Source: Psammoneis japonica (lineage: Eukaryota). Taken from it: a stretch of DNA of 63,059 nt. A program made the translations under genes and the position numbers. This document shows positions 5,901 to 59,119 of this stretch, piece by piece; positions within the stretch are counted from its first letter, which is position 1, and each line of letters begins with the position of its first letter. The notes under the pieces were generated by a model that worked only from the letters and a program-made list of their open reading frames with translations, was not told where the DNA came from and did no database searches. The stretch lies in assembly GCA_008632985.1 (NCBI GenBank), contig QPGO01000120.1, forward strand, positions 186,001 to 249,059, given 5' to 3'.

Positions 5901-6149
5901 ACAGTTCAGAATAATCTAAGTTTATCCCTTACTAAATATTAGTACGGTAATAGGATCCACATTCCTACGACACATGATGTATGTGCATGGATGATTCAAG
6001 AAACCCAAAGTGGGTGCTAAAAATCTAACTGCTGGTTTGCGATGATGTCAACAGAAGACACAACCCATTAGAGAGTGCTTCCCAGGAAATCTCTATAAAA
6101 TGTCAAACTTCCAGAAAAGAGGCCGAGAAACCGCATAAAGCCTGACCTT

Positions 6150-15200: not shown

Positions 15201-15399
15201 TGGCTCTCCCTCTCATGCATGCAGATTCTGTCCAACCAAGAGTCAATGAAAGGATCAAGCCATTGCTCTCACAGTTTGGGACAAGTTCAAAGCCTGATTG
15301 CAGCACTTTTCCAGTCTTGGGCCTCAGCCACAATGTGCAACAAACAAACAAAGAAGTGAACCTGACACTTCATCAACCCTGCAACAAACAAACTTTGCC

Positions 15400-16395
15400 A
15401 ACCCCACACTTTCTTCCATGGTTGGCAACAAGAAACAGCTCTCTGATTGAAGGCTTGGTGAGGCAGTCTGCCAGCTGATCCACCTTGATCATCACAATGA
15501 ACTCATGACTGTGTGACCAGAACTGGTGCAGCTGCTTCACCAGCAGAAAACATTTGGTTTGTTCAGTCATGCAACGGTCAGTTGTCACAAGCTGGAAGGG
15601 ACCCCAGCCGTCCTTGAATTTTCCACAAAACACAGAGCAGGATTCAATGTTGCAACAAGCATCAAGAGTCAACACAATCTCTTGGAACATCCTCTTCAAA
15701 GGCAAGAAGCAGGTCCTGAAGGCAAAGGAGGCAGCTTGGTGCTCAGTGTCAAGAGTGGAACATGCAAGAGCAGTTTGGAGTTGGGATTTCCAGACAAAAG
15801 AGCAGGTGTTCAGGGCTGCAAGGTGACTGTTGTGAGAACAAACCAAGCTCAGATCAGAGCCTGGCTCCTGACAGAAGAGACCAGCAATGCTGGTGTCAAC
15901 CCACAAGTCAAGATTAAAGTGCCCATTGAAGACAAGTGCATTCCTCACATGGTTGTGCACAGCTTTTCTTGAGATGCTGCCAGACTGAAGTTTTTGCAGC
16001 AGCAGTGCAAGACTTGGGAGGCAAATTGAAGTGTAGAACTTGGCTCACAGCCAAAGAAATGTCAGGGCAAGTGTTGGCAGACAGATTCAGAAGCATGTCA
16101 ATGACAGAGGGGGGGGTGGGGGTGGCTCCAAGCTTCACCCATCAGCTCACCATGAGGGTCACTGCCAAGAGTGGGAGTTGCCACCACTGGCAGAATGTTG
16201 GGCTTCTTGCCGCTCTGCATCATGCTGGTGGAGCACCTAAAATCATTTGTCAGTCAACCCAGATGATTGGGACAATCTGACAGTTGCGCCATCCTGTTTT
16301 TCAAACTTGATCCCAAGGAACTCAGCAAAGCTGCCTTCCTTGGTCAGATTGTTCCCTTCCTTGCTCTGTGGTCCCTCAACAACCATCTGGTCAAC
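15400..16395 (-). mobile_element. Ty1/copia LTR retrotransposon fragment (RT C-terminus and RNase H)
   Basis: EGSFAEFLGIKFEK, MLLNLSANTCPDISLAVSQV (cf. TRPDIAFAV), WKSQLQTALACSTLDTEHQA (cf. IALST.EAEY.A) and DQLADCLTKP. Confidence 0.85.
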
Positions 16396-16399
16396 AGCA

Positions 16400-17178
16400 G
16401 TTAAATTTGTTGTGAGCTTCTTGAAGCACTGCTGACACATTTTGTTCAAAAGTGATTCAACGTGATCTGCAAACAAACTTGATTCAAGCAGTCAAGTCAA
16501 AGGATCCAATCTCACATTCTGGTGGAAGGCGTGACTGCACCAAGCATTTTTTTGGGGGGGGGGGGGGTCTTTCAGCTGTTTCGTGGTGGTCATTTTCTTT
16601 TGCAATGACAAAGCATCTCTGGCCGCTGCCGCAGTGGGGAGAAAGTGCCCAGTCCAGATGGAACACTCTGGATCACAGCTTGATCTTTTGCCCTGATCAC
16701 CTTTTGCTGCTGGTGCAGAAAGAGGAAGCCTGGCATTGTGTGAAACAGCTGCACCTGGGCACAATTTCCATGTGGTGTGCACTGGTGCCAAGCAAATGTT
16801 GTCAGCTGCAACATGCAGAGGCAACCTGGCCTGCCCTCTTCATCCATCAGCTGAGCAAGCTGAGGAGCAAATTGAAGCATTTTTTACAGTGTTGCGTGCA
16901 AGCAACCAACTTGGACAGAAAGCCCTGCACCACCATCATCCAGCTCATGAAACAGACCATTCTTGTCCAAGGAGACAAACTCCTGGAGCATCTCTGCAAA
17001 GCTTTCTTTTGGAAAACATGGAGGGCAAACCAAGAATGCACGAAGCAGCCAAATCCTGTCCTTGCTGATGCTTCGAGCAAATCTGTTTGTGCAAAGATGA
17101 CAGCACATTGGTTTTTTGAGCTCTTTCTGAAAACCCTCATCCTGAGTGACACCCACATTTTCTGAGGCTCCTGTCTCC
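16400..17178 (-). repeat. TpA-depleted copy of the ankyrin-like fragment
   Basis: Homologous to 8715-9285, with TA>TG/CA and CG>TG/CA changes (e.g. TGTAGAGGTA vs TGCAGAGGCA). Confidence 0.8.
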
Positions 17179-17345
17179 GACGTGTTCCAGCCGCACGTGA
17201 CCCAAATTGTGCACAAAAACAAAATTTTTGCGCGGTCTCTGACTTGTGAACGGTTTTTCACCACCAAAAGCACAGATTTGTTCAAATTCAAATGTTTTGC
17301 AACACCAACAAGACTCGTGTGAGTGTTGCAATGTCACTGTCATTG
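17179..17345 (+). mobile_element. Truncated GAC-terminus MITE, same subfamily as 26062-26349
   Basis: Starts GACGTGTTCCAG and shares TTTCACCACCAAAAGCA...CAACACCAACAAGACTCGTGTGAGTGTTGCAATGTC. No closing TIR found. Confidence 0.7.
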
Positions 17346-17949
17346 TGCCATCTGTGTTTTTCATTGCGACAAATGAATCGTAACACAATGGATGATTTTC
17401 GGTGAAATCATTGCCATCATTTGGATGCCTCCACAATGGTGTTTCCTTGTCTGACACACTTTTCAACAACAAGTCTGATCACTTCACCAGAAGTTTGTGG
17501 GACGACTCTGTCTCTCTCTCTGCACTGGACAAGAATGTGCAAAACCACATTTTGTTCTCTGCAGAGGATGAGCCATCCAAGATGCTTCCAAGGAAAAGTT
17601 TTTGCTGTCCATTGAAAGTGAGAACATGACAAGCTCAACTGAACCACCACTTTTGTCTCAATGTGTCATCAGGGGGGCATTTCACAGTCACTGATTTGCA
17701 CCAGGTTGAACAAACATTGAAGAGCATCTTGATTCACCATTGGGGTGCTCAGAGGCAGGATGTCAACAAGAGCTTTGACAACATTGACAGGAGGGTGGAG
17801 AGCTTGCAAAACAAAACACGGCACATGGGACAAAATCCATTCCCCCCTCCAGAGTTAAATGCAAAGCATGCTCCCCAGATTTTTGACAAGGAGGCCAGCC
17901 TTGCAGTTTTGGCATCAATGATTTGGGTCACCAGATTTCAGCTGTGTTC

Positions 17950-18800
17950 ATCCTGCCTTGAAGAGAGCTGCTCTCACAGTCTCCTGGGCTGCCCCCCTTG
18001 AGTCACGACAAAACCCAGCACATGTTGCCATCAATGACTGCAATGCTCTCACATTGCAGACTGTGGCCACAATGGCGCCAGCTGTGTGCTGACCAATGCC
18101 TGGCAATTTCTCCAATTTGGTGACAGTGGAGGGGATTTCACCACTGAGTTTGTTGAAGACATGCTTTGCCACCTCATGGAGGGGAGCCATGCACTCAGCG
18201 ACAAAAGCCCAGTCCACTCCAGTGTGTGCTGGCCTCCTTGGCACTGGCATTGGTGAGATCCTGGACAGTGGGGAATCTGTTCATCCACTTGCACCAGCAC
18301 AGAATCATGGCCTCCACTTGAGTCTGTTGCAGCATGATGATTTCACTTGCCCAAATGCCTCGGGCTGTGTCCACGGGGCTGTGTTGTTTTCTCGGCTCCG
18401 CGATGTCTCCTTTGTTGTTGTCTTCCTGCAATTGTGTTTCCTCTTTCTTTGTTTTTTTTGTGCAAAGCACTTGCTCATTGTTGTTTGCTTTGGTTTCTTC
18501 TTCTGTTGCCTCTCAGCATGGACGACCACAAAGTTGGCCACACACTTCCCTGCCAGGGAGGAGTGTCGCCGCCCCATGCCACGGCAGTTTGCACCAGCTT
18601 GCTTGATGCCATTGCAGTGGTTTCAACCAGATCTGCATTGCTTCTTGGCTGGAGAACCTGTGAAAATTCAAGCTGTTGTGCTTCGCCCATGATTCCAGAA
18701 AAGGCAGAGTTTTTCCTCCTCTGTCTCTCGGCATGGCTGCCAGTGTCTGCTGTCTGCTGCTGCAGAAGAAATTTTCATTGCCGCTCTGGGCATCATTTTC
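17950..18800 (-). pseudogene. MUTYH: MutY A/G-specific adenine glycosylase pseudogene fragment
   Basis: LQWHQASWCKLPWHG (cf. WY..NRRKLPWR), GIWASEIIMLQQTQV, RFPTVQDL, WSGLGFCR (cf. WAGLGYY.R) and HhH LPGIGQHTAGAI (cf. GIGPYTAGAI). Confidence 0.85.
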
Positions 18801-19106
18801 AAAGTGGATGAATGCCGGTAGCCAACAATGAATCCAACAGAGTGGTTGCCTTTGCTGGAGTCCTGCCTCAAGCAAAGGAGGGAAAGCCGTCTGTGAGGAG
18901 CACAACAGGTGTGCGCAGCGCACGCGACAACGGTCGACGCATGGACTCACGATGGAGAGTGGCGCGCGCCTCGCCGCGTGTGAGAGTGAAGTCAACGATG
19001 CGATATCGATCGACCGCGCATCTTTTTCCATTTTGCGACCCAGTCGTGTTGTCAAGAAGCACGGTGATTTGTGATCGAGATCCCCCAAGCCCATCTAAGC
19101 ACCAAC

Positions 19107-21690: not shown

Positions 21691-22113
21691 ATAAGTTGCA
21701 CAACACATGCATGCAGTTCATCATTTTCATGCCTAAATTCACCAACGGCAGGGCACGTATGCCGCTTTTTCCGTTTAAGCCTTAATGTAGAATTGTTTCT
21801 CGAAGCACATCAATCATGTGGGTTCTCTCTGTCCTTTTGGGGTGAAAGAACTTTGCAATTCCATGGCATTGAAGCGTGATGAATTACCCTCAAAAATCTC
21901 CGAGATGTGGAGGTTGGCTCAAGCGACTGATGAGATGAGGACTTGCTTGCTTAAGGTTGGGGACATGTGGTCTTCTCTCCAACATTCTCGAACAATGTGT
22001 CACAACACAAGATGTTGTCATTGTGGTGCAACCCAATCCACATGTGCGCCAATGCAAGATTTTACAAAGCTTGCCACCCTTTTAGAACTTCACTGCTACA
22101 TCTTTGCCACCTT

Positions 22114-23083
22114 TGTGGAGGAGTCCTTGCTCCGGTTATCTTGTGGTGCAGAGACCATGAACAGAACAAAGCATCTCTGGCCACTGCTGCAACAGGAAGC
22201 AAGCCGCAGATGTTTTGCCCTGACCACCTTTTGCCAATGGTGCAAAATGCCAAAGCCTGGCAGCATTGTGCAAAAACAGCTGTTGTGTCTGGGTGCAATT
22301 GCCAAATGGTGTGCACCAGTGCCAAGAAAATTGTCACCGGCTGTGATGTGCAGATGCAACTTGTGCCACCCTCTTCATTCTTCATCCATTGGCTGCACAA
22401 GCTGAGGAGCAACTTGAAGCACATTTTTGACAGCATCTTGTGCAAGCAAGCAACTTGGACAGAAAACCATGCACCACAAGCTGCCAGAAAGCTTGTGAAT
22501 TGTGCATGTGCTTTGTTTGGAAATCTCTCAAGCAAAGCCATTTTTGCCCATGGAGACAAAATCCTGAAGCATCTCCACAAGCTTTCTTCAGAAAACCTGC
22601 ACCCAAGGCTCCTGTCTCCATCAGGCTTTTTTTCCAATGCACCCACAATGGCACATTGTTGCATGACTTGATCTTCAACAATGAGTCTGGTTGCTTTGCC
22701 TTGACCAAAAGATGCACAAAATCTTGGAAAAGATGTTGAAGGACAGCTCTCTCTCTCTCTCTCTCTTAATTGAATGAACAGAAAATTGGTGCAGCCAATT
22801 CTCTGTCAAATGTGACAAACAAGAAGATGCAAGCAGCCAATGTGGAGTGCTTGACAGGATTTTTGTCCAACTGTTTCAGTTGACAGCAGGCACAACAACA
22901 TCAGCTGAAGTCAGGAGAATGAAACTTTCATGGTGACTTCATCAGCGGCTGGCTGCTGTTGTTCATGTGGTTGAGGTTGTTGCACCAAAATGATCTGGGG
23001 GGCTGGGGGGGGGGGGGGGTGAGGGGCAGACTGAGGGCACGATTGCAATTTGAGTGGCTTGAATCATGCACTGCTTTCCACAT
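22114..23083 (+). repeat. Left copy of a ~1-kb direct repeat flanking the Penelope-like element (ankyrin-like fragment, (CT)n, hammerhead unit)
   Basis: Near-identical to 27837-28863, starting TGTGGAGGAGTCCT. Confidence 0.9.
22903..22950 (-). ncRNA. Type I hammerhead ribozyme-like motif (variant)
   Basis: Minus strand AGCCG-CUGAUGA-A-GU-CACC-AU-GAAA-GUU..GAC-UU-CAGCU. Confidence 0.55.
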
Positions 23084-23285
23084 GATCTCTCTCTTTCTCT
23101 CTCTCTCTTTCTCTGTGTTTTGGTCTCTCTTTCCATCTCTCTCTCTCTCTCGAATGAACGATCAAAATTGGCGAAGCCAATTTTCCGTCAAATGAGACAA
23201 ACAATGGCAATGCAAGCAGCCAAGGCAGAGCCACTTAATCGGATGTTTGTCCAACTGTTTCAGCAATGGCAGGCACAACAACGTT

Positions 23286-23333
23286 GGCCAAAGTCAGGAG
23301 AATGAGACTTTCGCGGTGGCTTCATCAGTGGCC
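23286..23333 (-). ncRNA. Type I hammerhead ribozyme in the PLE terminal repeat
   Basis: Minus strand GGCCA-CUGAUGA-A-GC-CACC-GC-GAAA-GUC-UCAUUCUCCU-GAC-UU-UGGCC. Stems I, II and III all pair. Confidence 0.7.
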
Positions 23334-26061
23334 GGCTGTTGTTGTTGACGTGCGGTGGGTGTTGTTGCATTAAAAAGATCCAAAGAAGGACAGACGGGTT
23401 GATTAAATTGATTCAATTCAAGTCAAGTTGTCCTCTCTCTCTCTCTCTCTCTCTCAGTGGCCTCCATGTTTGCAGTCCAACAGGATGAAACTGGGGGGCC
23501 ATGGGAGACTCGGAGCACATGGTGGGAAAGGAGATTTCCAAGATTGCAGGAGCGACTGTGACGAACAATCATGCAGTTGAGGCCGATGCATTGTCGGGCG
23601 TGATTTCGAAGGTTTGAGAGAGGTTGAGAGCAGGGAGGGTTGGCCATTGCACCTTTCCACAATTTCTGCAGTTCTCTGGATGGCGGGTTGTTTGGATGGT
23701 GAGGAAGGTGCAGGAAGACTGGGTTTGACTGGGGCTCTTCTGTTGTTCTGTCAGCATTGTCAAAGATGAGGTCATGTGCTTTTCGGAAGAGCAGTTGTAG
23801 TTTGCTGGGTTTGCAACCCCGGGCTTGCAGTCGAAGGCAGAGCAGGCTTGCTTTTGCTTTTGCGTTGGTGGTGTCGGAGCACAGGTTTTTAAAGCAGTGG
23901 AGCACACCCACAATGAGGCTGGTGAGTGCTCCAGGCGGGTGAGCTGAGTGAGGTGGGATGCACATGCACAGATTCATTTCTTTTTCGTAGAGGGTGGTGT
24001 GGATGTGGGGGCCTTGGAGCGAGATTGTCAGGTCCATGAAGTTAACTTGGTGGCTTTGCAGGCTCGTGATCCAAGCAATGTCAAAGTCATTCAGTCTGGA
24101 GGCAAATGCTTCCCAGGTGGCGGCATCAGTGGCAGTGTCAACAATGTGCCAAATGCCAAAGACGTCATCAACAAATCATTTGCAATGAAAAAGCTGGGAG
24201 CTAAACTCCTCCAGGAGCATGTCTTCGTGGAGTGCACAGTGTGAGGTGGCACATGGAGGGGCGGGTGGTGTGCCCATGGTGGCTCCGTTGCGCTGGTGCC
24301 AAGTGGTGTCTCCAAAGGTGAACACATTGTTTTCCATCACAATTTGGAGTGCTTTGATGAGGGCATCCATTGGCACGTCGTCACATTTGTGTTCATGACG
24401 TCAGAGGCAGGAGGCAATCAATCAAAATGCTTTTCTGGTGGGTGTGTTAGAGCAGCAGGCCTCGGCATTGGATGTGAAGAGGAGGCAATGCGATGGCACC
24501 TCCATTTGGACAAGTGCTTGTTTCAGGTCCAGGGAGCTCTTGAAGTGTGATCGTTGGCAGCAAGCAACTTTCTGGAGCTTGTCATCCACCCAGATGCCCA
24601 AGCCGTAGAGCAGGCTGCCGCTGGTGGAGACGATCGGTCGGGATCGGAGCGGAGGGGGCTTGTGCACCTTTAGAGCAAGGCAGAAGATGGGGAGTGGGTC
24701 TTTGTCAGTTTCAAGACAATGTTTCAGATGCTTGCGTTCCATCGGGGCAAGGCCAGTTTTGTGTGTCTTGAGCCAGTCATTGAGGAGGTTTTTGATGCGG
24801 TGTTCTTGGGTTCCAGCTTCAAACTCACTCAAAAATCGACACGTGTTGGCATCATTGAGATGATCGCGAAATGCCATCTTGATGCATTCGGTCTTTTTGA
24901 TGATGGCGGGCCCCAGGTTCTTGTTGCATTGGGCCATTGTGAAGTCGTCTTGTTTGTGAAGAAAGGCCAGGGCGTGTTGTTGGTGAGGCAGTGGGTTGGT
25001 TCTGCCGCGGCGTTTCACAAAGAGGTTGGTGACTTGTGATTTAAAAGTGGTGCATCGACAGGTGACAATGTTGGCAAGTTTCCAGGAAGGGGGGGTTCAG
25101 TTGGAACGGAGGCACATCCTGGGATTGCAATCTCCATCATCGTTGTTGACAGGTGCATTGGTGAAGTGATCTCGTTTGTCAAGGTCTTGTTTGAATCTTC
25201 CAAGTGCATGTTCTTGGATCTTGGAGGACTTCCCGTTGTTGGTGAAGTGTGGAGCAGGAACAAATTTCAAGCTGAGACCAAGCAGTGATTGGAGGTTCTT
25301 TGGTGGTTGTTTGGTGGTGGTGCAATCATGGAAGGCAAGGTGTGAAGGCCTGTCAAAGCAGCGCCAGGCAGGCATGTGTCGCAGGTGGGTGCAGGCATTG
25401 TGTCGGATTGTGTGAGATGGGTCGGCGATGAATCCGCATGTGTGATGGATTTGGCACTCTGTTGCCTCTAGTGCCTGTTCCGATTGTTGTTGGAGTGCTG
25501 CTGCTTCTTTTTCGATTGCTGTTTCGATTTGGAGTGGCGGCGACTGTTTTTGTTTGCGCTTGTGGTGTCGTTGTCGGCATCGTCAGCTTCGCCGTCACGT
25601 TGAGCACGTTGTTTCTTCACATGAGCCGATGAGGCACCTTTGCCCTTTTCTTTTTGTGATGAGGCACAGGCGGTGTAGTTTCGGCCCCTCGGGTTGTTTG
25701 ACTGCTGTGCTTTGATGGACTTGAGGCATTGAGCAAGCGTGCTGACCTGTTGGGAGAGTTTTTTGGCATTTTTCTCGGTCTCCTTGCGGATGAGCTCTTG
25801 GAGGGTGGGAGGGTCGACTGCAGCTTTGCCATCAATTTCCATGTTTGTGCTCTCGGCAGCCTTGGCATCGAAGTGTTCCTTGTTGAGTTTCTTCAATTGG
25901 AGGCTGATGTCGTGTTTTCTGTTTGGATGCCAGGCAGTCAGTCCAGGGAGACACGAAGATGCATTCAAGCGCCCGGAAGATCTTGCTGAGTTCAGTCTCG
26001 ATTTTCTGTTGCGCAGCGGTGATTTGTGGAGCGGCGGGTGCTGGTGCCATTTCTTGTGCAA

Positions 26062-26349
26062 GACGTGTTCCAGCTGCACGCGAACCAAATCGTGCGCAAA
26101 AACGACATTTGCGCGATTTTTGCACGGTCCCCAACTTGCGATCGAACTTTCACCACCAAAAGCATGGATTTGTGCAAACACAAACAATGTTTTGCAACAC
26201 CAACAAGACTCGTGTGAGTGTTGCAATGTCGCTGTTGTTGTCAAATCTTTTGAGCATTTCATGTCAAAATGCTCCATGCACTAAAACACACACAAGCTGC
26301 ACTCAAAATCGATCATCGTTTTGTGCATCACCTGGGACTGGAACACGTC
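26062..26349 (+). mobile_element. MITE (288 bp) nested in PLE ORF1
   Basis: TIRs GACGTGTTCCAG...CTGGAACACGTC. Flanks GCAA / GTAA form a 4-bp TSD with one TA>CA change. Confidence 0.9.
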
Positions 26350-26490
26350 GTAAGGAACAAGGAGTCACTGGCTCAGTCGTCTTGAGTTTGAGACTGTCGA
26401 GCAGTTGGAGCAACCAGCGGTTGCGGCAGGTCAGCAACAGCATTTGCTGTCTTGCACTTGGTGAGAAACACGTTGAGGTTCTCGACCTTG

Positions 26491-26936
26491 TGCAATGTGC
26501 AGCCACTGATGAGAGTCAATGTATCACGGCGACGTGTTACAGCCTTTAAATGTCACAAAGGGCGTGACAAAAATAACCTTTTGTCTGCATGCATGCTGCG
26601 TTGTGAATTCACAGCGGAGTGGCACATCGTAACCACCAGGCAGGAGGCCAGGGGTTCGAAACCCGAGTGGGAGTTGTCTGCAGCAACGTTGATCACTGTC
26701 GAACGCGTAAAACTCTGTGCAGTTCTGTGTGTTCCTTCGTACGTACCCACACTGTTCCGCCAAAACCGTGCAGTGTCAGCACACGTTAGTAAAGAGCCGC
26801 ATGGACGCGTGATGCATGGGGAGGAGTGCAACATGCAGCTGCCAATGAGAGTCAATGCATCACGGCGACGTGTTGCAGCCTTTAAATGTCACAAAGGGCG
26901 TGACAAAAATGACCTTTTGTCTGCATGCATGCTGCA
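26491..26936 (+). mobile_element. TRIM (miniature non-autonomous LTR element) nested in PLE ORF1
   Basis: 110-bp LTRs at 26491-26600 and 26827-26936 (TG...CA). Polypurine tract GGGGAGGAG before the 3' LTR. CTTG TSD on both sides. Confidence 0.9.
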
Positions 26937-27656
26937 CTTGATGTGCTTTGGCAGCATTTCATTTCAGCGGTCAAGCAGGGTGACCACTGCGGTGTTGACA
27001 GGTGTGGTGATGCTGTCGGCCACAGCAAAGCTTTCAGTTGTGAGTCGGATGGCTTTCGTGCAGGACTCCAAAATTTCTTCTTGGATGACGTTGAGTTCAA
27101 TCCTGGTGGCTTGGACAACTTGCTTTTTGAAGGCTTTTTGGTTGGCAGAGATGAGGTCATTGGTTTCCTCCTGCAGAGCCAAAAACTCCTGGCTCTGTTC
27201 AGCGGTTTTCGACATTTGGAATTTGAAATTGATTCGGGCTGAGCGGGGGATGAACTCTTCATCGCTTTCCATTCATTGGACATGAAAGGCCTTGTCATGG
27301 GCCTTGGCTTGCAGTTGGATTTGGTTGATGGCAAGCTTCTCGAGGATGGTGGCCATTTCTGGTTGGAGCGACATGATGTGGTCCCCGATGCATTGGGTGG
27401 CGGTGGCAAGGGGTGTCCTTGTTTGCTGGTTGGCTGGGTTCACCGCAGTCGAATCGAAGCGCGTGTGTTTTGGGTTGGTGGTCTCGGTCGCAGCATCCAC
27501 TGTTGTCTTTGTGCTCTCTCTCTCTCGAACAATCAAAATTGGCAAAGCCAATTTTCCGTCAAATGTGACAAACAATGGCAACGCAAGCAGCCAAGGCAGA
27601 GCCACTCAATCGGACATTTGTCCAACCATTTCAGCAACAGCAGGCACAACAACGTT

Positions 27657-27704
27657 GGCCAAAGTCAGGAGAATGAGACTTTCGCGGTGGCTTCATCAGT
27701 GGCC
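27657..27704 (-). ncRNA. Type I hammerhead ribozyme in the PLE terminal repeat
   Basis: Identical core and stems to 23286-23333. Confidence 0.7.
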
Positions 27705-27800
27705 GGCTGTTGTTGTCAACTTGCAGCGGGCATTGTTGCATTAAAAAGATCCAAAGAAGGACAGATGGGTTGACTAAATTGGTTCAGTTCAAGTCAAGTT

Positions 27801-27836
<36 letters not shown>

Positions 27837-27840
<4 letters not shown>

Positions 27841-28863
27841 GAGGAGTCCTCGCTCCGGTTGTCTTGTGGTGCAGAGACCATGAACAGAACAAAGCATCTC
27901 TGGCCACTGCTGCAACAGGAAGCAAGCCGCAGATGTTTTGCCCTGACCACCTTTTGCCAATGGTGCAAAATGCCAAAGCCTGGCAGCATTGTGCAAAACA
28001 GCTGTTGTGTCTGGGTGCAATTGCCAAATGGTGTGCACCAGCGCCAAGCAATTGTCGCCGGCTGTGATGTGCAGATGCAACTTGTGCCACCCTCTTCATT
28101 CTTCATCCACTGGCTGCGCAAGCTGAGGAGCAACTTGAAGCATGTTTTTGACAGCATCTTGTGCAAGCAAGCAACTTGGACAGAAAACCATGCACCACAA
28201 GCTGCCAGAAAGCTTGTGAATTGTGCGTGTGCTTTGTTTGGAAATCTCTCAAGCAAAGCCATTTTTGCCCATGGAGACAAAATCCTGAAGCATCTCCACA
28301 AGCTTTCTTTAGAAAACATGAGAACAAGAAGCCATTTGCTTGCTGCAATGATGACAGCATGTTCTGAAAGTCCTCATCCTGAGTGACATCTGCACCCAAG
28401 GCTCCTGTCTCCATCAGGCTTTTGTTCCAATGCACCCACAATGGCACATCGTTGCATGACTTGATCTTCAACAATGAGTCTGGTTGCTTTGCCTTGACCA
28501 AAAGTTGCACAAAATCTTGGAAAAGATGTTGAAGGACAGCTCTCTCACTCTCTCTCTCTCTCAATTGAATGAACAGAAAATTGGTGCAGCCAATTCTCTG
28601 TCAAATGTGACAAACAAGAAGATGCAAGCAGCCAATGTGGAGTGCTTGACAGGATTTTTGTCCAACTGTTTCAGTTGACAGCAGGCACAACAACATCAGC
28701 TGAAGTCAGGAGAATGAAACTTTCATGGTGACTTCATCAGCGGCTGGCTGCTGTTGTTCATGTGGTTGAGGTTGTTGCACTAAAATGATCCAGGGGGTGA
28801 GGGGCAGACTGAGGGCACGACATTGCAATTTGAGTGGCTTGAATCATGCACTGCTCTCCACAT
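27837..28863 (+). repeat. Right copy of the ~1-kb direct repeat
   Basis: Matches 22114-23083 and includes a hammerhead variant at 28698-28745. Confidence 0.9.
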
Positions 28864-29211
28864 CTCTCTCTCTCTCTCTCGCTCTCTTGGTTGATTGAAC
28901 AAATGAGTTGGCACAGCTGATTTTCCATCAAATTGACCAACAAAGAACAAAGAGTGGCTGAGGCTGGAGCCACCATTTTGGATGTTCACCCACCTGTTCA
29001 GCAAGTGGCAGGCACAACAGCATTGACTGAAGTCAGGAGTGAGACTTTTGCAGTGGCCAGCTGCTGTTGTCAACGTGTGGTGGTTGAAGCTCTTTTGTGT
29101 TAAAAAGATCCAAGGTGAGTGCAGCTGTCACTGTGGGGAGGACAGATGGGTGGATTTGAGTGACTGGTTTTCAGATCAGCAGCAGGTTGGTTTCTCTCTC
29201 TTTCTGTGTGT

Positions 29212-29244
<33 letters not shown>

Positions 29245-29246
<2 letters not shown>

Positions 29247-30170
29247 GCAGTGGCCTCCCTGTTTTTTGCAATCTGGCAGAACAAATCTGGGGGGGGCATT
29301 GGAGATTCAAAGCTTGTGGCATGACAGCAAGTTCCCAAGAATGTGTGCATGGCTGCAGCATGCAATCTTGCGGTCTGGGCCAATGCATCGTCGTGTGCAG
29401 TTGCGAAGGTGGGAGAGTGGTTGTGAGTGGGGAGGGTGGGACACAGCGCCTTTCCAAATTTTTTTAAGTTCACTTGAAGGTGGGTCATTTGGATGAAAGG
29501 GCATGTGGAGAAAGATTGGGTTGGACTGGGGTGCTGCTGCTGCTCTGGCTGCATTTCCAAAAATCAGGTTGCACGCTTTTTGGAAAACTGGTTGCAAGTG
29601 GTTGGGTTTGCATCAATTCCATGGGCTTGCAGGCAACTGCACAGCAGCTTCATCTTGGTTCAAGCATCATGCAGATCAGAGCAAAGGTTTTGAATTGGAG
29701 CAGCGTGCCCATGATGAGACCAGTGAGTGGCTGCTCCAGGCGGGTGGGGGCTGAGCAAGATGGAAGAATGTGCAGACATGAGCTCATCTCCTTTTTGCAG
29801 AGTGCAGTGTGGAGTTGTGAGTCTTAAAGAGAAATGGTCAGGTCCACAAAGTTGACTCAGCTGGATCTGGGGCTGGTGTGACCCAGGTGATGTCAAAGTC
29901 ATTTGGCCTGGAGGTGAAGGCTTCCTGGTGGGTGGCACTGGCAGCAGCATTGGTGATTTTCCAGATGCCAAGTGCATCATCTGCAAAACATTTTGGTGTC
30001 CCTTTCCATCTCTCTCTCTCTCTCTCTCTTTCAGTGGCCTCTCTGACTGCAGCCTGGCAGGATGAAACTGGGGGGCCATGGGAGATGATGCATCTGGAAA
30101 ATGTTGATGTCTGAGTGGAAAGATTGGCAAAAGCATCAGTTGTTTGCATTGTTGCCCAAGCTCCATGCAC
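29245..30170 (-). mobile_element. Two 5'-truncated Penelope-like 3' fragments (about 29247-30005 and 30031-30170), each abutting (CT)n
   Basis: FADDALGIW, PIFLHMPFHPNDPPSSELKKIWK and LGNLLS. Both start (TC)n..CAGTGGCCTC, as at 23455. Confidence 0.8.
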
Positions 30171-31004
30171 TCACCAACTCAGTTCCTGCCTCTCTCTTGC
30201 CTTGTGTTCCAGTGCGCTGTCCCCCCCCCCCCCCCTGATGCTCTTCTGTTGCCTTCCCTTGCTGCTGATGTCATTGTCATGACATTTTACGAGCCTTGTG
30301 CATTGCATTTTGTGTCTTGTGAGGAAATGTTGTTTGGTGTTTTTGCAGCAATGTTGAGCCTGTCTGCCTGGTGATTTCTTTCAGCATCACTTTTTGGGTG
30401 ACAATTTTGTTTTAAAATTCCATGCTCACATTTGGTTTTGAAGGTTTGAATGATTTGAAATGACTTGATGAATCATCCAGTCATTGAGGTTCTGCACGTG
30501 TGTCTGCAGTCGGTCAATTTCTCATTTCTCATCGTGTCAATGTTTCTTGTTGAGGGGGGTCATCCCCCAGTTTTTAGCTCGCATTTTGCAAAAAAGGCTC
30601 GTGTTCTAAAACTGTCATCTTGAGCATGTGCGTGATGCGGACCAGCACTCGTGCATGCCATGAAAACGCGTCATGTGTTTGATTGTAAAGCTCTGTAGTG
30701 TGGTGGTCTCTGCTGCAGCTAGCGGAGCAGAACAGAGTGCTGCATCGCTGCATCCAGACACTTTCACATCGGTGCTCATTCTAGCCAAGTTTGTGCAAAC
30801 CTTTCTGTCATGACTCAGTCCTCACGAAAACTGGTTCGATCTCACACAAGATGAGTGCTTCAAGTTCCAACAATGCCAAGTCCACACAAGAAGAAATTCT
30901 GGCTGCCATCAGATCTTCGAGATGTTGTCGTTGAATCAGGTGTGGACAGCCGTGTGTCTGCAGACAACTTCAGTCACGTGCTTGGCGACATGTGTTGAGA
31001 TGGG

Positions 31005-33317
31005 TTGGTGGCTTGTGTGCCTTGGAAGAAACGTCTTTACCATTGCTTGGATGCCTCGACCTCGGAGGCTCCAAAAGATCAGAATCTCAAATTGATGCCT
31101 CCTTCGAACACGGAGTTCACATCAGCCAGTGACGACGGTGCAGATGCAGTCAAGAAAATTGCTGCAGAGCTTGATGCCATCAGCAAGGAAGGCAACAAGG
31201 AAAATGATGATCCATCAAAAAACAACTTGCCAATTGATTTTGAAAAGTTGATGCTGGACGGAATGAGAATGGTTGGAAACCATCAATTTGGCCTCTTTGC
31301 ACATTGGAGCTTCAATCGCTGCAAGCATTGCAAAAGCAAGAACATCATGTCTGCCAACATTGAGATCTTCAAATTCAAGAAGGACGGATTTGGCTCAGTT
31401 GATTGTCGTTGCTGCACCGGCTGCAAGGAAAACCATTCTTTTCATGCGTGTGAAGAATTGAAAATGCCGTTGGTGGCAAAAGGGAAGAAATGCTCTTGCA
31501 AACAGCTTGTGGCAAATGTCTTGATGCCAGCCAGTCTAAAGTGTGCTGGCATCAATCCTGCCAAAGCAATTGAGTTTTTTGGCGAGGCTGGTCTGATGGT
31601 GCCAACAGAAAGAAACCTCAGAAAGGAAATGGAAAAGACACACACGGCATTGCCAGCAGAGATGCAGTCAACAGCAATTGAAAATCAAAGACGGGTTGTT
31701 GCCGCTGTGAGATCTTCCCCTGATTTCAAAGAGGAGGTCAACACAATCCAGTGGGTGGGGAAGGATGGTGTCCAAAACAAGACCATTTCTGTTGCTGCAA
31801 TGATGGATGCTGCCGGTGTGACTCGCTCTTACAACAACTGCACCACAGGCACTCAGCTTGGTGCTGCATTGACATCCCATGTTCTAGATTTGCCAATGGC
31901 AGTTGGTGCATCACGAACATCTTGCATGAAATGCTGTCATGCAATGCATGACGCGATGTGAAATGGTGAGAAGAATCCTTCGCTTTTTGTCAGAAAGCAC
32001 AAAGGTGAGTGCATGAGCAATTCCATGGATGGCCCGGCAGTGGCAGAGGAATTTGTGCTTGAGAAGTTTGGATGGGACCCACCACCAGACAAGGATGGTG
32101 CATGTCTGGGGGATGATGTTGCTTTGCATGTTGATTGGACAGGGGCCGATGGAGATTCTAAGGGCCACAACCGTTTGTCACGGAAACAAGTTGAGATCAT
32201 TGGTGACAAAGCCGCAGGTTGGTGTCAAAAGCTCCCGTGTTCTTCTCACACAGGAAAAAATTTAACCAAGGCTTTCTTTCAATTGAGAGACAGCAACCCG
32301 AGCTTTCGTGGAGTGGGTGGTCTTGAAAATGCTCGTGTGGCCGCTGTGTCGAGCGACATCAAAAAATGTCTCAAAGAACTGAACGCTGCAACATGGGAAA
32401 AGGGTGCCGAACCAACAAAGGAGCAAATGCTTGACACTGAAAGGAAAATGTTGAATGTTTTCCCTCATCACATGGGGGGCCATTCGGGCTGCATGGACTC
32501 AGAGCATTGTGGCTTTATAAAAACAAAGTTGGGATGCGGGCACACGCTTGAGGAGCAACTCACGAAAGAACGAGAAGAGGAATTGTGCAAAGAGATGACA
32601 AAAAAGGGACATTCTTGCTTCGACTGCAGCTTGGAGCTTAACGATGAAGGTCCACAGAGAGTGATGAGAGAAATCTCTTTGAGATGCAATGACAAGAGCA
32701 TCCTGGGATTGTCCAAGTGCCTCACTGCCAACCAAGTTGAGTCACTTTGGGCACAGGTGACAAAGCAATCTGAGGGAAAGCGCCTCAATCAAAACTGTTC
32801 CGACATGTGGGAAATTGCCGTCGGCTTGGCAGTGCTTGCGAAATCAAATCTAAGCAAGTGCAAAAAAACATTGTTCAATGATCTTGGCTTGGAAGAGTCT
32901 GGGGAACAGAGGAAGTTTTGACTGCGGCATGAGAACAGGCGTCAGAAGAAACTGGCTGTGAAAGCAACCGAATCTTACAAAAATGGCCACCGCAGGAGCA
33001 AAATCGTAAAGCAGGCCTGTGGCAGGAAGCCGAAAGAATCACACAAGTGCAAGCCAGAAAAGGTCAAACCAGGTGAGGACGCAACATTGAAACGCAAGAG
33101 AAAAAATGGGCCATGCCAGAATTGTTCCGGCGAGGGTCACACTGCAGGAAAATGCAACATGCCGAAGAAGCACAAGCAAGATGACCTTTTGCTTGATTCT
33201 GTTTGGTTCGACGGCTGTGACAAGAGTCAGCTTGTGTTGCAAGCAGGTCCCGAGCAAGTGGTTGTTCCATGTGTGATGAGCAGCAGCGGTGCCCGCACAA
33301 GCAGTTCTTCTGAATGA
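31005..33317 (+). pseudogene. Kolobok-type DDE transposase with C-terminal zinc knuckle, interrupted by stops
   Basis: MDAAGVTRSYNN, GADGDSKG, KLPCSSHTGK, HHMGGHSGC...HC, TANQVESLW and CQNCSGEGHTAGKC. Confidence 0.75.
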
Positions 33318-33349
33318 TGAGCAGCAGTGGCAGTGGCAGTTTTGTTGTC

Positions 33350-34700
33350 TCATCGCAAGCAGGCGCCGAACAAGCAGTCAGCTGTTCCAAACAATGATTG
33401 CCAGTGGCAGTGTTGGTGTCTTTTGAAATCCTGAAATTCTGTGCATGGCTTGTCTGGAGCATTTGGCCATGACATTCGAATCACAGACACAAGGCACTCT
33501 GGCAACTCTTTTCGATTCCCAGCACCCTTGACAAAATGCATGTTTGTCACAAACCAACAATGCAACAGATTCCTTCTCAATTGGTTGTCCATTTTCTCGA
33601 CATCATGGTCAACAAAACAACATTGCTCTGAAATGGACTCCAGAAACTCAAGGGACTGTGCCTTCTGTTGATGCTGTTCTGCAACACAAAAATGAAACCA
33701 CTGCCCATGTTTGGAGCAAAGCCGGCCACCACGATGGCAAAAGAGGTGGCCACCCTCAGGCAGCTTCCTCACATCATCTCGCTCCTGAAACGCTTTGATT
33801 TGATGGTGCAACAGAGTGACTGGGTTTTCAAGAGCACAGAGATGGGCAGGATTGGGATGCAGCACGAGCTCATTCCCCTCTTTTTGTTCTTGTGCGGTCG
33901 CATGCGACAGTCCCTGCGAGTCAACGTCAACAAGCGGGCGACAAAGGAGTTCATGTTGCACAATTGCAGTGCCAATTTTTGAAACATCACTTGCACTGTC
34001 TGAAGGCAATGATCAGTCCTTGTGCCGTGTGGGCGCAAACATTTTCAGCTTTGTGATGGGTTGGCCAGTCGTCAGTTGCATCTTCACTGGATGCAGCAGG
34101 TTCGTCACCGGTGCGCCGAGACAAGTTTTTGATGAACCATCCCACAATTCCAAGTGAGCTCGTCGCATGCTTTGATTTGTTTTTTTGTCATGTCCAGACC
34201 CTTCAAATTCAATGCTTGACAAGAGAACCCTTGCAGCTGGCTCGAAACAGTTTTCTGCAATGTCAGATTCTGACATCAGTGCCTGAAAGAATCCACTCGA
34301 CAGTTCCAGGATAGACTGAATGGTTGGAGACCTGTCTTGAGAGTCTGTCAATGGCGAGTCATTGTCTGCCATTGGAAACTTGTCACTGTGGCTCTTGGTG
34401 CAGGCAACAAACTGACGCAACTCGGAACATGAATCAGAAGTCCAGCAGTCCGCGTCACTTCTGGCTCGCAGCAAAACCGCTGAAAGCATCTTCTTCTCAG
34501 ACGCTTGAACCTTGTCACATCTCCTCTCAGCCTTTTCATCCTGTGTCTTGAGTTTCTTGTGTCGCTTCTTTGTGTTGTTGCCTGAACGTGGTTCGTCAAG
34601 AAAAAGAAAAAGCAGCAGGCTGTGAGAGCATGCTGTGGTTGCATCAATGCGTGTCAACATGCATCGACTGTTCTCAGTGATGCAGTCTTCCGCCATGAGA
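33350..34700 (-). pseudogene. KolX accessory protein (P2X7 C-terminal/nanor-like domain)
   Basis: RRNLLHCWF...GAGNRKELPECLVSVIRMSWPNAPDKPCTEF matches the R..AY..F...LG..NR..LP.CVV..IR..FP....YTGF pattern once Tyr>His/Cys is reverted. Confidence 0.7.
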
Positions 34701-34907
34701 CCATTGCATCATGTCGATCATTTGTCATCTGGAGAAGATGCTTTTGATGCAAGTCGGACGGCAGCAACCCTCCGTTGCACTCACCTGGCTTGTCCGAAGT
34801 CGCCATGGTTGCCATGTTGCAAGTGCGGCGAGTGCTGTTTTTGGCAGAAAATCACGAGCTACATTGTCCAAATTCGAGCTAAAAAAGTAGAGACTGACCA
34901 CCCTTAA

Positions 34908-35307
34908 GACGCGTTCCAGCTCTAGCAGGTGGGACCTCGCACTGCTGAACTGTGACATCAACAGTTTTTTGGATCGCGTCGCATGTCGCGCACGCACATT
35001 TCTGCGTGTGACATTCTACGAAATTGTTTCATGCTCCCTGTTTTGCGAAGCCAAAGGCTTTCTATTTTCAACATTTGTGAGAATGAAAATGCGCTGGGTG
35101 TGTTGTTTAATGTCCACAGAATGTGCCCGGGCAAACTGTCAATGATGCACTGCAAGCATGAAGGAGGAGATGCGTTCGTAAAACAGCCTCTTTTTCTGTT
35201 GGCAATCATTTGTGTTTTCATTGCAGTGTAAATTTACTGCGGAGCTCGCACGTAGAATTCCATGGGCCCAATGTCACACGGAGTCCCACCCAGGACTGGA
35301 ACCCGTC
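34908..35307 (+). mobile_element. MITE (400 bp), GAC...GTC family
   Basis: TIRs GACGCGTTCCAG..GGTGGGAC / GTCCCACC..CTGGAACCCGTC. TTAA TSD shared with the Kolobok right end. Confidence 0.92.
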
Positions 35308-35310
35308 TTA

Positions 35311-36300
35311 AAATGCAAATTTTCACAGTCTTGCTGTGCAGGTGGAGCTGGCAAATCTCAAGCTCAATCTCAGCCACAAGAGCCTGGCAGCAGGAGCCCT
35401 CTCATTTTTCATCATGTTGATGTGTTCTTGTTAAGATGCAAATTTGCACAGTCCTGCTGTGCAGGTGGAGCTGACAAATCTCAAGCTCAATCTCAGCCAC
35501 AAGAGTGCAGCAGCAGGAGCCCTCAGAGAAACCAAGGCTGTGCTGCCGCAGCTGCTGCAGCGCCAGCTGATGGTCCCAACCCAGCAACTGCTGCCACTGC
35601 TGATGCCTCCACAATGACAAAGCCGCTGCCCACCATGCCAATGCGGGCCCGCACCACTCTCCAGCCATTGCAACCAAAAATCTTGAATTTCTCATGTGTT
35701 GGCACAAAATTCCTGCGACTCTTGTTGTTGCATGCCCTGGCACCCAATGGAGTCTCCCACAGCCATCCCAAGACAACTGGTCACTTGCACTGTCACACAG
35801 ATGGCTCCATGGTCTCTGCAGCACAGGTGTGTTGGCTGGGCCAAAGAAGCCCCCAGTCATGTCAGAAAGAAAAGGTGCCACACAATTGACACAAGACAAG
35901 GCCTTCTTTGCTCCCCAACCAAGGTTGTTGTTGGCTCTCCTGGGACACAATGGAATCACCCAAGGCCAGCAAAAGATGTCTGGGCACTTGTGCTGTCACA
36001 CAGAAAGCTCCCTTGCCTCTGCAGGTCAGGGGTGGCTGGGGGGCACCACAGCAAGCCGATCACATCAGAAAGAAAAGGGGATGCATCAGCTCAAGACAAG
36101 GCTTTTCCTTTCCAACCATCATTGTTGTTGCCTCCTCCCAGACCCAACAGAGTCTCTTGTGCCCACCTCCAGACAACTGAGTGCTTGCACCATCACACAG
36201 ATGGCTCCCTTGTCTTTCTTGCAGGTTGAGCCACCAAAAGCCATCCCAAGACAATGGAGTGCTTGCACTGTCACACAGATGGTTCACTTGTCTTTGCAGG
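35311..36300 (+). repeat. Degenerate local direct repeats
   Basis: A ~90-bp unit ATGCAAATTT..GGTGGAGCTG..CAGGAGCCCT at ~35312 and ~35436. A CCCAAGACAA..CTTGCACTGTCACACAGATGG-like unit near 35766, 35980, 36168 and 36245. Confidence 0.75.
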
Positions 36301-38149
36301 TTGGCTGGTGCCTCCACACCTTGTGCAGCTGGGCATCTTCTTGTGTGGAGGATTCATGCAAGGGGCTGCTGCTGCTGCTGCCCAAGACAAGGCTTGCAGC
36401 TTTCAAAATCAAGAGTGCAAAGACACCACAGTTGGGCCAAGAACCCACTCAACAAATGCAGGTGGAGTGCATTCTTTGGGGTCCATGTCATGATGCAGGT
36501 GGCAGCAACTCAAGACAATGTGCATTGGTGGTGATGATGATGATCTGGGCCACCACCACATGCTCCATTTTAGTTTCTCAAGTGGCGCTGGCCTGTGCAT
36601 CATGCACCATCTACCCGGCAAGCTTGTTGCTCCAACTGGAGACACCAGCAAGACATGTCATCAAACTCACCACCAGAGTGAACCCCTTGGAACTGAGGAT
36701 GTGTGGCTGATGAACTCTGGCCATTGTTTTCATTTGTGGCAATGGCAAGAGGGAAGAAGATGAGACATTCTTCCCAGTCTCTGTCGCATGGCAATGGCTT
36801 TCCAAGCAGTGGCGCCATTGCTTGCTTTGTGAGATGCAAAGACCATGCCTTGGCAAGTTTAAATTGGCTGGCTTTGGCAGAGAGCAGCAAGCTGACAGAG
36901 GCGGCATGACACCCAACTGCAGTGCTCAGCAGAAATCCAACAGCAAATGGACAAAAATGATGGACGGCAATTGCAAACCAGGTCCAGCACAGGACAGTTG
37001 AGCATGAAAAAGTGAGAAGATGTGGCATCACACTTCATCACATGGAAGTTGCACAAGTGCTTTTTTCACCATGGTCTTTTCCAAGATGGATCTCAGTCTC
37101 TAAATGCATGCTCTGCTCTTCCTCGTCTTTGTCACCAACAGCTCCATGTCACCACATTCCAGAACAAGATTTGCAAGCCATTTCCTGGGCAACCCTCAAT
37201 TCTGCAGACAAGCTTGCCAGGCCATGGTCTTCCAAAATTTTTGTGCCAGACAGTCTGCATTGGTTTGCTTGACTGTGCAAGCAAGTCCAAAACAGCCACA
37301 AGTTGTTCATCAATGGCCCGACACACAGCTGAGCAATCATTGAGCAACAAACAACAAAGAAAGAGACGGCCACACAAACTTGCTTTGAAAAACAAACAAA
37401 CAAAAGCTTGCCTGCATCCATCACTTTTGCCCCCCCCCCCCATCCACATTTCAAATCCAACAGCATCAAACATGACAACCGTTTCCAAAAATGTTCTTTC
37501 CAAAGGAAGAGCAACTTCTTAAAAAGTGGCCCCTGAATCCAAGCAACAGGCATTGCTGCAACAATGTGCTGCCACACCATCAATGGTGCTGCACTCTCTG
37601 TTGATTCTGATGCAACAAATGAGCACAGCCAGTGACATGAGTTGGTGTGCAACAATGCCAATGCATTGCATGAAATGTGTTGAGCCACAAATGACAAATG
37701 CAACTTGCTTTGGCCCTGAAACAAAAGCTCGCCTGCATCTCTTTTGCCCCCCTCCCACAATTCAAAGCATGGTTCACAGCTGCAATGTCTTGAGCAGTGG
37801 AACAACAGAGCAACACTTTGAATGCAGCCAAGTTGCTGCAGCAGAAGAAGCAGCAACAACAGGAAGCACATCATTGAAATCAAAAATGCAGTTGGACAAG
37901 AACGGAAGACATCACCTGCCACGGCGATTCTGTCACAATGGCAAAGACAATCACCACATCATTGCAGCTGTTGGCATCAATGTGGTGTGTGGTGTGGTGT
38001 GAAAAAATGTGCATCTGCTGACCGCGAGTTGAGCCACGCAGGTGTCAACAACTTGAAAAGGGAAAAAATGATCAAATTGTTTGACTCAATGTTTGCAAAA
38101 ATGATGCACAATTGACAACTGCGCAAATTGAAGATCGGTGAACAGAGTT

Positions 38150-39150
38150 AGTGCGTGTGCAACAATTTTGTTTGTCAACAAGTTTCATTCTTGACAAGCA
38201 CTGAAACATGTTGCAGACAAAAGTTGTGGCATGCAAGCAAATTTCTGAGGTGCCATCTCATGTGCAAGCAACTGCAGCAGACAATCATGCAATTGAGTCC
38301 AACACATTGTTGTGCATGGTTGCTGAGGTTTGAGAGGGGTTTGTGAGGGGGGGTCAGCCATTGTTTGACAAGAGTGTGCAAAACCGCACCTTGTTCTCCA
38401 GAAGATGACCCATGTGTGCACTGCAAGTGAGAACTTGACAAGCTCAGCTGGGCCACTGTGTGTGTCAACCCACCGTCAGGGGGTGTTTCAAAGTCACTGC
38501 TTTGCACCGTGAGGTCAAAACATTGAGGAACACACAAAACACTTTCTTGTCCTCCAGAAGATGAGCCATGAGTTGCCCACAATAAAGTGGTTTTGTTGTC
38601 CATTGAAAGCAAGAATTTGACAAGCTCAGCTGAGCCACCACACCTCAAAAACAGGCCGTTGTGCTCTGGATGATTGTGTTGAGAAACATGTTGAGGCACA
38701 TCTTGTTGCTTGTCCTGCTGGAGTGGCAAGTTTTGATGACATTGACAAGAGGATGAAGCTTGCAAAATGCACGGTTCATGAGTGCAAGTCAAGATCCACC
38801 ATCCCACTCCAGAGTCAAGTGCAAAGTTTTGGAGCACACAAAGCTTTTTGTGGAAGGGGCTCTCCCCAAAACATGGGCTTTGACCAAGTGCTGTGTGGAT
38901 GTCCACCAATCACAAAAAGTGATTGTCCCATGTTTGAGCCAGTTTGTTTCATGTGCAGGTTTTTGCTCTACAATGTGGGAAGTGATGGACCCCCATTGCC
39001 ATTGTCGCTCGTTTTGGGCTGCTGGCAAATTCAATGTCATCATCTCCTGCAGCTCTGTCTTTGCACACACATCTCTTGGAGAGCACAAGAACTGCAAATG
39101 CCAAGTCTTCAGATTTCTTTGGTTTCTCTCATGTCTGGACCAATGGTGGT
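38150..39150 (-). mobile_element. Older Penelope-like RT remnant interrupted by another repeat (38380-38650, similar to 17560-17720)
   Basis: PPHKPLSNLSNHAQQCVGLNCMIVCCS..LRNLLA matches the C-terminus of the element at 23480-23650. Confidence 0.6.
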
Positions 39151-59090: not shown

Positions 59091-59119
59091 GGTTGACAAC
59101 AAAACAATCCGATGCAAAG

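Follow-up and report, generated by a model that had tools for sequence, protein, structure and literature searches.

A TRIM-type element with a transition-only LTR pair in TA-erased DNA

We found the DNA at positions 26491 to 26936 of the window (the whole 63-kb stretch of DNA analyzed) to be a 446-bp nonautonomous LTR retrotransposon of the TRIM type, inserted with a 4-bp target-site duplication into an older repeat. Its two LTRs differ by transitions only, all at pyrimidine-purine steps, and the repeat tracts around it retain 6% of the TA dinucleotides expected. CpG decay and a separate, region-limited loss of TpA may together have shaped the LTR pair and the tracts, an explanation that we give an even chance as a whole. 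The earlier note on this DNA had taken the LTR pair as a record of the mutation spectrum since insertion; this mutational reading is partly supported for the LTR pair and well supported for the surrounding DNA. The evidence comes from this one 63-kb window and from reads of one sample, of which the contigs of four runs (X1 to X4) were aligned to 26200-27250.

Structure and class of the element

The element consists of two LTRs and a core (110 + 226 + 110 = 446 bp), dimensions within those of TRIMs (LTRs of about 100 to 250 bp, a short core, and a total below about 1 kb). Its parts and its host tract are as follows.

22001..39000, no strand: TA- and CpG-depleted repeat tract hosting the element; a second tract lies at 14001-19000
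26487..26490, plus strand: left target-site duplication, CTTG, seen in the sequence and at the empty-site joint
26491..26600, plus strand: 5' LTR, 110 bp, TGCAA...CTGCG, 4 TA and 5 CG; contigs show loose ends of unrelated sequence just before 26491
26601..26826, plus strand: internal domain, noncoding, 226 bp, 6 TA and 16 CG
26613..26622 and 26653..26663, plus strand: weak tRNA-gene-like box A and box B in the core, about 30 bases apart, read from the sequence
26818..26826, plus strand: polypurine tract, GGGGAGGAG, adjoining the 3' LTR, seen in the sequence
26827..26936, plus strand: 3' LTR, 110 bp, TGCAA...CTGCA, 1 TA (in TTTAAA) and 4 CG; loose ends before 26826/26827
26937..26940, plus strand: right target-site duplication, CTTG

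The assignment to TRIMs, already made in the earlier note, is supported: the LTR ends are TG..CA, a purine tract precedes the 3' LTR, CTTG is duplicated, an empty site exists, and the family is abundant. The predicted termini TGTA...TACA were not seen; the family ends read TGCAA...CTGCA. Both LTRs start with TGCAA; the right one ends with CTGCA and the left one with CTGCG, and the last LTR base is A in 61% of the X1 depth. The empty site was found in two X1 contigs, in which the joint 26486->26937 skips 450 bases and four letters fit either side. As the flank is a repeat of which some copies lack the element, the joint represents the empty site, with its 4-bp duplication, in paralogs of the flank. 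A simple tandem duplication is ruled out by this joint, by the TG..CA ends, and by the very high copy number.

No Pfam family was found in the ORFs overlapping the element, and the 63-kb window holds no second copy of it. ARAGORN and Rfam reported no tRNA or Rfam family at the element, and ARAGORN also rejected a majority variant, so a tRNA origin of the core is unsupported by these programs on the window copy or a majority variant. No primer-binding site was recognized next to the 5' LTR; the first TGG is located 20 bases 3' of this LTR, and the window has no tRNA gene for comparison.

TRIMs, the terminal-repeat retrotransposons in miniature, are known from plants and also from animals (e.g., PMC4528315, PMC4558846). 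Like them, the element is small (446 bp) and present in many copies, with short TG..CA LTRs around a short noncoding core, a polypurine tract, and a duplicated target site. Unlike them, it shows no recognized tRNA-complementary site at its 5' LTR, carries box A/B-like motifs in its core, and made a duplication of 4 bp instead of the usual 5 bp. No report of TRIMs in diatoms was found in the literature as far as its text was accessible, and with this element diatoms would gain a TRIM family of very high abundance.

Differences between the two LTRs

The two direct repeats, 26491-26600 and 26827-26936, align without gaps at an offset of 336, with 100 of 110 positions identical. All 10 differences are transitions within pyrimidine-purine steps, with 0 transversions and 0 indels, and they are distributed as follows (left LTR/right LTR).

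26496 T/C and 26497 G/A, partner 26832/33: TG<->CA swap 1
26504 C/T and 26505 A/G, partner 26840/41: TG<->CA swap 2
26507 T/C and 26508 G/A, partner 26843/44: TG<->CA swap 3
26522 T/C: TA site 1, GTATC/GCATC
26539 A/G: TA site 2, GTTAC/GTTGC
26575 A/G: TA site 3, AATAAC/AATGAC
26600 G and 26936 A: terminal LTR base

The gap-free alignment reproduced what had been noted from the sequence before: three sites with TA in one copy and CA or TG in the other, three swaps, and the last base, with neither transversions nor indels. The four CpGs said to survive in both LTRs are at 26527, 26530, 26533, and 26563 and at their partners at +336, and the TTTAAA kept in both is at 26545-50 and 26881-86. When 10 transitions were placed at random on the LTR 200,000 times, three or more TG<->CA swaps arose with P = 0.0004, and all 10 changes fell within pyrimidine-purine steps, which make up 68 of the 110 LTR positions, with P = 0.006. 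The TA differences split 3:0 between the LTRs (p = 0.25), and TA losses in the internal domain are invisible to this comparison. The claim of a mutation spectrum since insertion stands as far as the transitions at pyrimidine-purine steps and the TA loss of the tracts are concerned; the pair itself offers seven events, from one pair and without polarity, and its swaps are polymorphisms of the family, so that conversion between copies may have contributed and the differences need not all date from after the insertion.

Family variants and the possibility of gene conversion

The TRIM family is very abundant, dispersed, and multicopy. We found 1592 X1 contigs matching 26200-27250, and the sequences flanking the LTR start were diverse. 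Their summed word depth, which is not a copy number, was 1.1-1.9e5 in most LTR bins and 3-11e4 in the core, and in the flanks it was 2e2-1.8e3 in most bins, with two left-flank bins reaching up to 2.7e4. An exact 24-base LTR word had no match in metagenome contigs.

Variation among the X1 copies comprised 121 transition places versus 43 transversion places. Linked TG<->CA alternatives, with near-equal depth at both bases, were found at 26800/01 (8%), 26813/14 (78%), 26834/35 (70%), 26840/41 (4-5%), 26843/44 (10-12%), and 26846/47 (25%). Since such alternatives occur across the family, the swaps are not private to this LTR pair. The TA sites of the window copy read CA in other X1 copies at 26630 (97%), 26574 (85%), 26740 (76%, plus TG in 22%), 26708 (63%), 26790 (48%), 26744 (45%), and 26787 (43%); at six of these seven sites the T follows a purine (R-T-A), and the family majority in X1 is poorer in TA than the window copy. 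The small runs X2 to X4 probably hold only the most abundant family variants, judged by run size. Relative to the window, an X3 contig (26544-26909) and an X2 contig (26601-26882) show no changes beyond those listed for them, and as none is listed at 26858 or 26875, the X2-X4 contigs keep C and G there, i.e., the state of the right LTR.

An ancestral consensus with TG or CA at the TA sites had been named in the earlier note as grounds for giving up its reading. Taken literally, the abundant variants fit this description, with C at 26858 and G at 26875 in X2-X4 and CA at 26574-75 in 85% of X1, but the graded series of frequencies suggests that these abundant variants are a younger, TA-poorer state. 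The graded shares look like successive TA-to-CA replacements in a source lineage, and the 9% divergence between its LTRs would make the window copy an old member of the family, still rich in TA.

The X2-X4 contigs, taken as abundant variants, share the state of the right LTR at two of its three TA sites, and the left LTR could instead have gained TA. At two of the three swap sites, too, the right LTR is like the abundant variants, a likeness that suggests conversion. Ectopic gene conversion from an abundant TA-poor subfamily may have overwritten the right LTR from at least 26832 to 26911, leaving a mosaic element whose differences record subfamily divergence and not mutation since insertion. 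We regard this as unlikely, though with a real chance of being right. Other copies carry the alternatives at 26840/41 and 26843/44 at 4-12% of the right-LTR depth; left-type sequence from 26488 to 26523 occurs at a depth of 1.1e4, much more than a single copy would give; at 26832/33, 26840/41, 26858, and 26875, the right LTR agrees with the X2/X3 contigs; the T (TA) alleles found in the left LTR and the internal domain are the rarer ones; and a very large family provides abundant donors. Unequal crossing-over is excluded by the intact 4-bp duplication and the empty site, but these are compatible with conversion. On the other hand, independent mutation of hypermutable sites in thousands of copies would make every haplotype abundant, the right LTR is 5 to 6 bases off each abundant contig, and a young duplicate elsewhere in the window, described below, has the same spectrum.

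TA-erased tracts around the element

Throughout the nongenic tracts 14001-19000, 22001-26490, and 26937-39000 (21,554 bp), TA was observed 83 times versus 1401 expected and CG 465 times versus 1282 expected (0.36), with TG and CA in excess and about equal to each other. The stretches on the two sides of the element hold 21 TA versus 278 expected (22001-26490) and 50 versus 802 expected (26937-39000); the element itself has 11 TA versus 26 expected and 25 CG versus 29 expected. The 1-kb bins of the window are bimodal for TA. Further near-TA-free stretches, at about 5001-6000, 10001-11000, 47001-48000, 54001-55000, and 59001-60000, alternate with ordinary genes. A search by PEPC for DNA of relatives yielded one locus, whose 3.3 kb is too short for tracts of this kind.

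Gene stretches have about half of the TA expected and about the CG expected. In eight long ORFs, the observed/expected ratio of TA was 0.44, 0.47, and 0.54 at codon positions 1-2, 2-3, and 3-1, respectively, and that of CG was 0.91-1.20; the values for phases 2-3 (synonymous) and 3-1 (codon junction) rule out a genome-wide mutation pressure of this strength against TA. Other dinucleotides were ordinary in a comparison of 51 TA-poor with 62 TA-rich bins of 126, in which bins were picked by their TA count and 13 intermediate ones dropped; the odds ratio of TG/CA was 1.70 in the TA-poor bins. The bin 15001-16000 has 1 TA, 3 CG, and 228 TG+CA, and low TA also occurs with much CpG, as in 25001-26000 (TA 3, CG 42) and 59001-60000 (TA 1, CG 33). 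Bins that are nearly TA-free yet near-normal in CpG make the loss of TA separable from that of CpG, in line with the previous claim that the loss of TA is independent of the decay of CpG.

The surviving TA steps differ in context between the TA-poor tracts and the genes (17,910 bp; chi-square, 97.6).

RTAY: 0 in the tracts, 180 in the genes
RTAR/YTAY: 37 in the tracts, 291 in the genes
YTAR: 46 in the tracts, 71 in the genes
TTAA (within YTAR): 23 in the tracts, 18 in the genes

These counts indicate that T is vulnerable after a purine and A before a pyrimidine, and that TTAA is spared, which fits the survival of TTTAAA in both LTRs. Among TA differences in RTAR context, CA was found 19 times versus 8 for TG (p = 0.05, with repeat pairs that are not independent). 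The change from ATAA to ATGA at the third TA site of the right LTR is contrary to the context rule.

We found no reverse transcriptase, integrase, or other retroelement domain in the TA-poor DNA among 136 of its 162 ORFs (a set without 26 that were shorter or overlapped others), so its transposon nature is argued from its repetition. Between 14000 and 39000, both strands carry many overlapping ORFs of 100 to 370 codons, spread over several frames and lacking any Pfam family. They are likely a by-product of missing TAA and TAG stops, not genes, and the absence of these stops would explain the many spurious long ORFs of such DNA.

The composition of the tracts bears on the direction of change in the LTR pair. 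If the tracts are near equilibrium, TA loss would need to be roughly hundredfold over gain. With about 8 TA versus about 50 TG/CA in the two LTRs, we then estimate that losses would outnumber gains by about 16:1, and for this reason we take the right LTR to be the one that changed. The opposite direction, in which CA or TG was present at insertion and the left LTR acquired TA by C-to-T changes at CpA on either strand (a RIP-like process or non-CG methylation), seems to us quite unlikely. C-to-T is the commonest spontaneous change, abundant variants have CA/TG at TA sites 1 and 2, and all three TA are in one LTR. Diatoms encode DNMT4, which the accessible text of one study relates to the fungal RIP enzyme RID and describes as uncharacterized in function (PMC9998398). 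However, a TA content at 6% of the expectation in the surrounding DNA implies loss far above gain, contrary to this reading, as does the 16:1 estimate for the LTRs themselves. RIP, moreover, raises TpA, which is erased here, and the T alleles of the window copy are not private but common to 3-57% of the family depth.

Substitution spectrum among repeats and in resident DNA

A self-BLAST of the window yielded 35 repeat pairs, all dominated by the transition spectrum of the LTR pair. The isolated adjacent double mismatch CA/TG occurred 118 times in these pairs, the runner-up type 13 times, and CG versus TG or CA was the commonest single difference, with 163 of 384 context-classified single transitions. 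By dinucleotides, the 34 noncoding pairs, which overlap and are not independent, had CG/CG 106 times, CG versus TG or CA 180, TG versus CA 160, TG/TG plus CA/CA 1113, TA/TA 21, TA versus TG or CA 81, and CG versus TA 2. The coding tandem duplicate at 1520-3503, used as an internal control, had 1 swap, with CG/CG at 54 and TA/TA at 17. This 994-bp duplication (1520-2513 / 2513-3503, 90.8%) lies within a 1189-codon XPG/chromodomain ORF, and its spectrum is ordinary.

The alignments of three repeat families contain 10 sites at which CG, TG, and CA occur together, with such sites in all three families, and 12 sites with TA, TG, and CA. The existence of both kinds indicates that swaps arise from both kinds of ancestor. 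The TA or CG ancestor proposed for the LTR swaps is borne out to this extent; for the LTR pair itself, the alternatives are family polymorphisms, and conversion is possible. The paralog at 8900-9283, between genes, has 28 CG, 15 TA, and 53 TG+CA, and at the other end of the range, paralogs of the same family have 3-7 CG, 0-1 TA, and 87-94 TG+CA. At swapped sites, a third copy had CG or TA in 4/9, 5/9, and 4/11 cases versus 46%, 27%, and 13% at unswapped ones, a suggestive result from small counts.

The region with the element is bracketed by a young duplicate, 22113-23000 / 27836-28795, with 96.8% identity. Its differences are 6 of CG versus TG/CA, 4 of TA versus TG/CA, 2 swaps, 2 other transitions, and 3 transversions, placing 12 of 17 events at CG or TA steps. 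In the CG differences, CG is in the second copy 6:0, as if one copy were decaying. A relic of a host gene also lies in TA-free DNA.

17951..18512, minus strand, two frames: fragments of a MutY-type adenine glycosylase with HhH-GPD and HhH motifs, in TA-free DNA
18204..18365, minus strand: HhH-GPD part of the MutY-type relic, in TA-free DNA

The fragments are probably a pseudogene. When they were compared with human MUTYH and the homolog P0123, the relic had R, C, W, and F at four columns that are Tyr in both. A search for longer MutY homologs retrieved one. Together, the young duplicate and the relic, small in numbers, favor change in resident DNA.

Change in resident DNA is relevant to a further alternative, in which only CpG decay is special: the swaps would come from methylated CpG, and the low TA would have been acquired by lineages replicating through RNA, e.g., by selection against UpA. 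CG versus TG/CA is indeed the commonest single difference, sites with CG, TG, and CA exist in all three families aligned, and the changes in the master lineage are strand biased, with sense-strand T-to-C at 7 sites versus A-to-G at 1. That RNA can be under selection against CpG and UpA has been described (accessible text of PMC3829696). Nevertheless, we find this alternative improbable. TA is more depleted than CG, also in bins of near-normal CpG; the contrast between RTAY at 0 and unchanged TTAA is sharper than known UpA selection; the MutY-type relic is host DNA, with four conserved Tyr columns replaced; and 4 of 17 differences in the young duplicate, a DNA-level event, are TA versus CA/TG.

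The idea that CG and TA came to read TG or CA through miscalls of modified bases in a long-read assembly is scarcely credible: strand-dependent miscalls would yield exactly TG or CA, and the best run holds 0.54 of the sampled 31-mers from 26000-27400, but X1 contigs (depth 30-70, longest 315 kb, so accurate reads) carry the same linked TG/CA variants, X1 matches the TA-free flank exactly over 124 bases (26966-27089), and neighboring sites are opposite in direction within 20 bases, unlike a strand-coverage effect.

Two proposed region-limited processes and known systems

Under the explanation by CpG decay and separate TpA loss, two region-limited processes would turn the self-complementary CG and TA into TG or CA. 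The first would be deamination of methylated CpG. The second would be a TpA-specific A:T-to-G:C change, seen as T-to-C after a purine, which is the same as A-to-G before a pyrimidine, and sparing TTAA. The element would have arrived relatively TA-rich (TA 11 versus 26 expected). The most likely history of the pair would then consist of three TA losses in the right LTR, three former TA or CG sites at which each LTR was altered on the opposite strand from the other, and one change at the last LTR base. CpG decay fits the known methylation of diatom transposons; the proposed TpA-erasing process matches no known mechanism. As guesses at its chemistry, thymine may be oxidized or otherwise modified at TpA and mispair with G, or adenine may be deaminated at 5'-TAY-3', either being targeted to silenced repeat chromatin. 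In its boldest form, which we put forward tentatively and at somewhat less than an even chance, this would be a dedicated TpA-erasing "inverse RIP" in diatom repeat chromatin, driving A:T-to-G:C changes at R-T-A / T-A-Y to completion (0 RTAY in 21.5 kb) by a thymine- or adenine-directed enzyme, independently of CpG decay and with genes and TTAA spared.

Vertebrate Alu-type CpG decay is the decay of methylated CpG in transposons. The tracts resemble it in that CG versus TG/CA is their commonest difference and in their TG<->CA swaps, their repeat-limited CpG loss, and their TG/CA excess. The CG content, at 0.36 of expectation in the tracts versus 0.91-1.20 in genes, is that expected of methyl-CpG decay. 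Unlike in such decay, TA is at 6%, TA-free bins are near-normal in CpG, and four LTR CpGs are untouched. CpG methylation of diatom transposons by DNMT5a is reported in the accessible text of PMC9998398.

Fungal RIP likewise consists of context-specific transitions confined to repeats, with genes spared, and diatoms have the RID-related DNMT4. However, RIP is a C:G-to-T:A change that creates TpA, and the net change here is A:T-to-G:C at TpA; with TA at 0.06 of expectation and a TG/CA odds ratio of 1.70, TpA is erased, not made, and we rejected RIP. Very-short-patch repair of Escherichia coli converts T:G to C:G beside the methylation motif in the Dcm context only and depletes CTAG. Like the process in the tracts, it removes TA words and enriches CA/TG words; unlike it, it is bacterial, Dcm limited, and weak. 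ADAR hyperediting leaves clusters of A-to-G on one strand, with a 3' G preferred; an activity of this type was rejected because the tracts hold TG and CA in similar numbers, retain some TTAG/CTAA, and have lost TA most readily in the RTAY context. The mutation motif of Pol-eta is WA, and a similar motif was rejected since there is no depletion of AA (odds ratio, 1.26).

The known context-specific mutation of repeats is C-to-T, via RIP or methyl-CpG decay. If true, a region-limited A:T-to-G:C removal of TpA would be a new mutational signature in major marine primary producers; it would point to a base-modifying or repair activity tied to silent chromatin, and the ages of transposable elements obtained from LTR divergence in such genomes would be read differently. 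If the "inverse RIP" is real, young insertions such as this element would have been caught midconversion and could be used as clocks. No description of TA-free repeat DNA in diatoms or of a TpA-erasing process was found in the literature as far as its text was accessible.

Other repeats and genes of the window

An inverted repeat of about 390 bp, 52072-52461 / 53009-53397, has arms 78.5% alike, with 29 TA and 30 CG in the right arm and 11 TA in the left. The whole, 52072-53397, may represent a DNA transposon whose terminal inverted repeats are long, and solo relatives of the repeat are located at 34906-35320 and 47034-47445. CT microsatellites followed by a common motif (CAGTGGCCTCC-like) occur at 23428, 29215, and 29999 as a modular repeat family within 23086-30044. 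Pfam matches of the long ORFs assign the window to an intron-poor diatom, as do the homologs of its TOM40 in Attheya, Fistulifera, Seminavis, Skeletonema, and others, the best with 73% identity.
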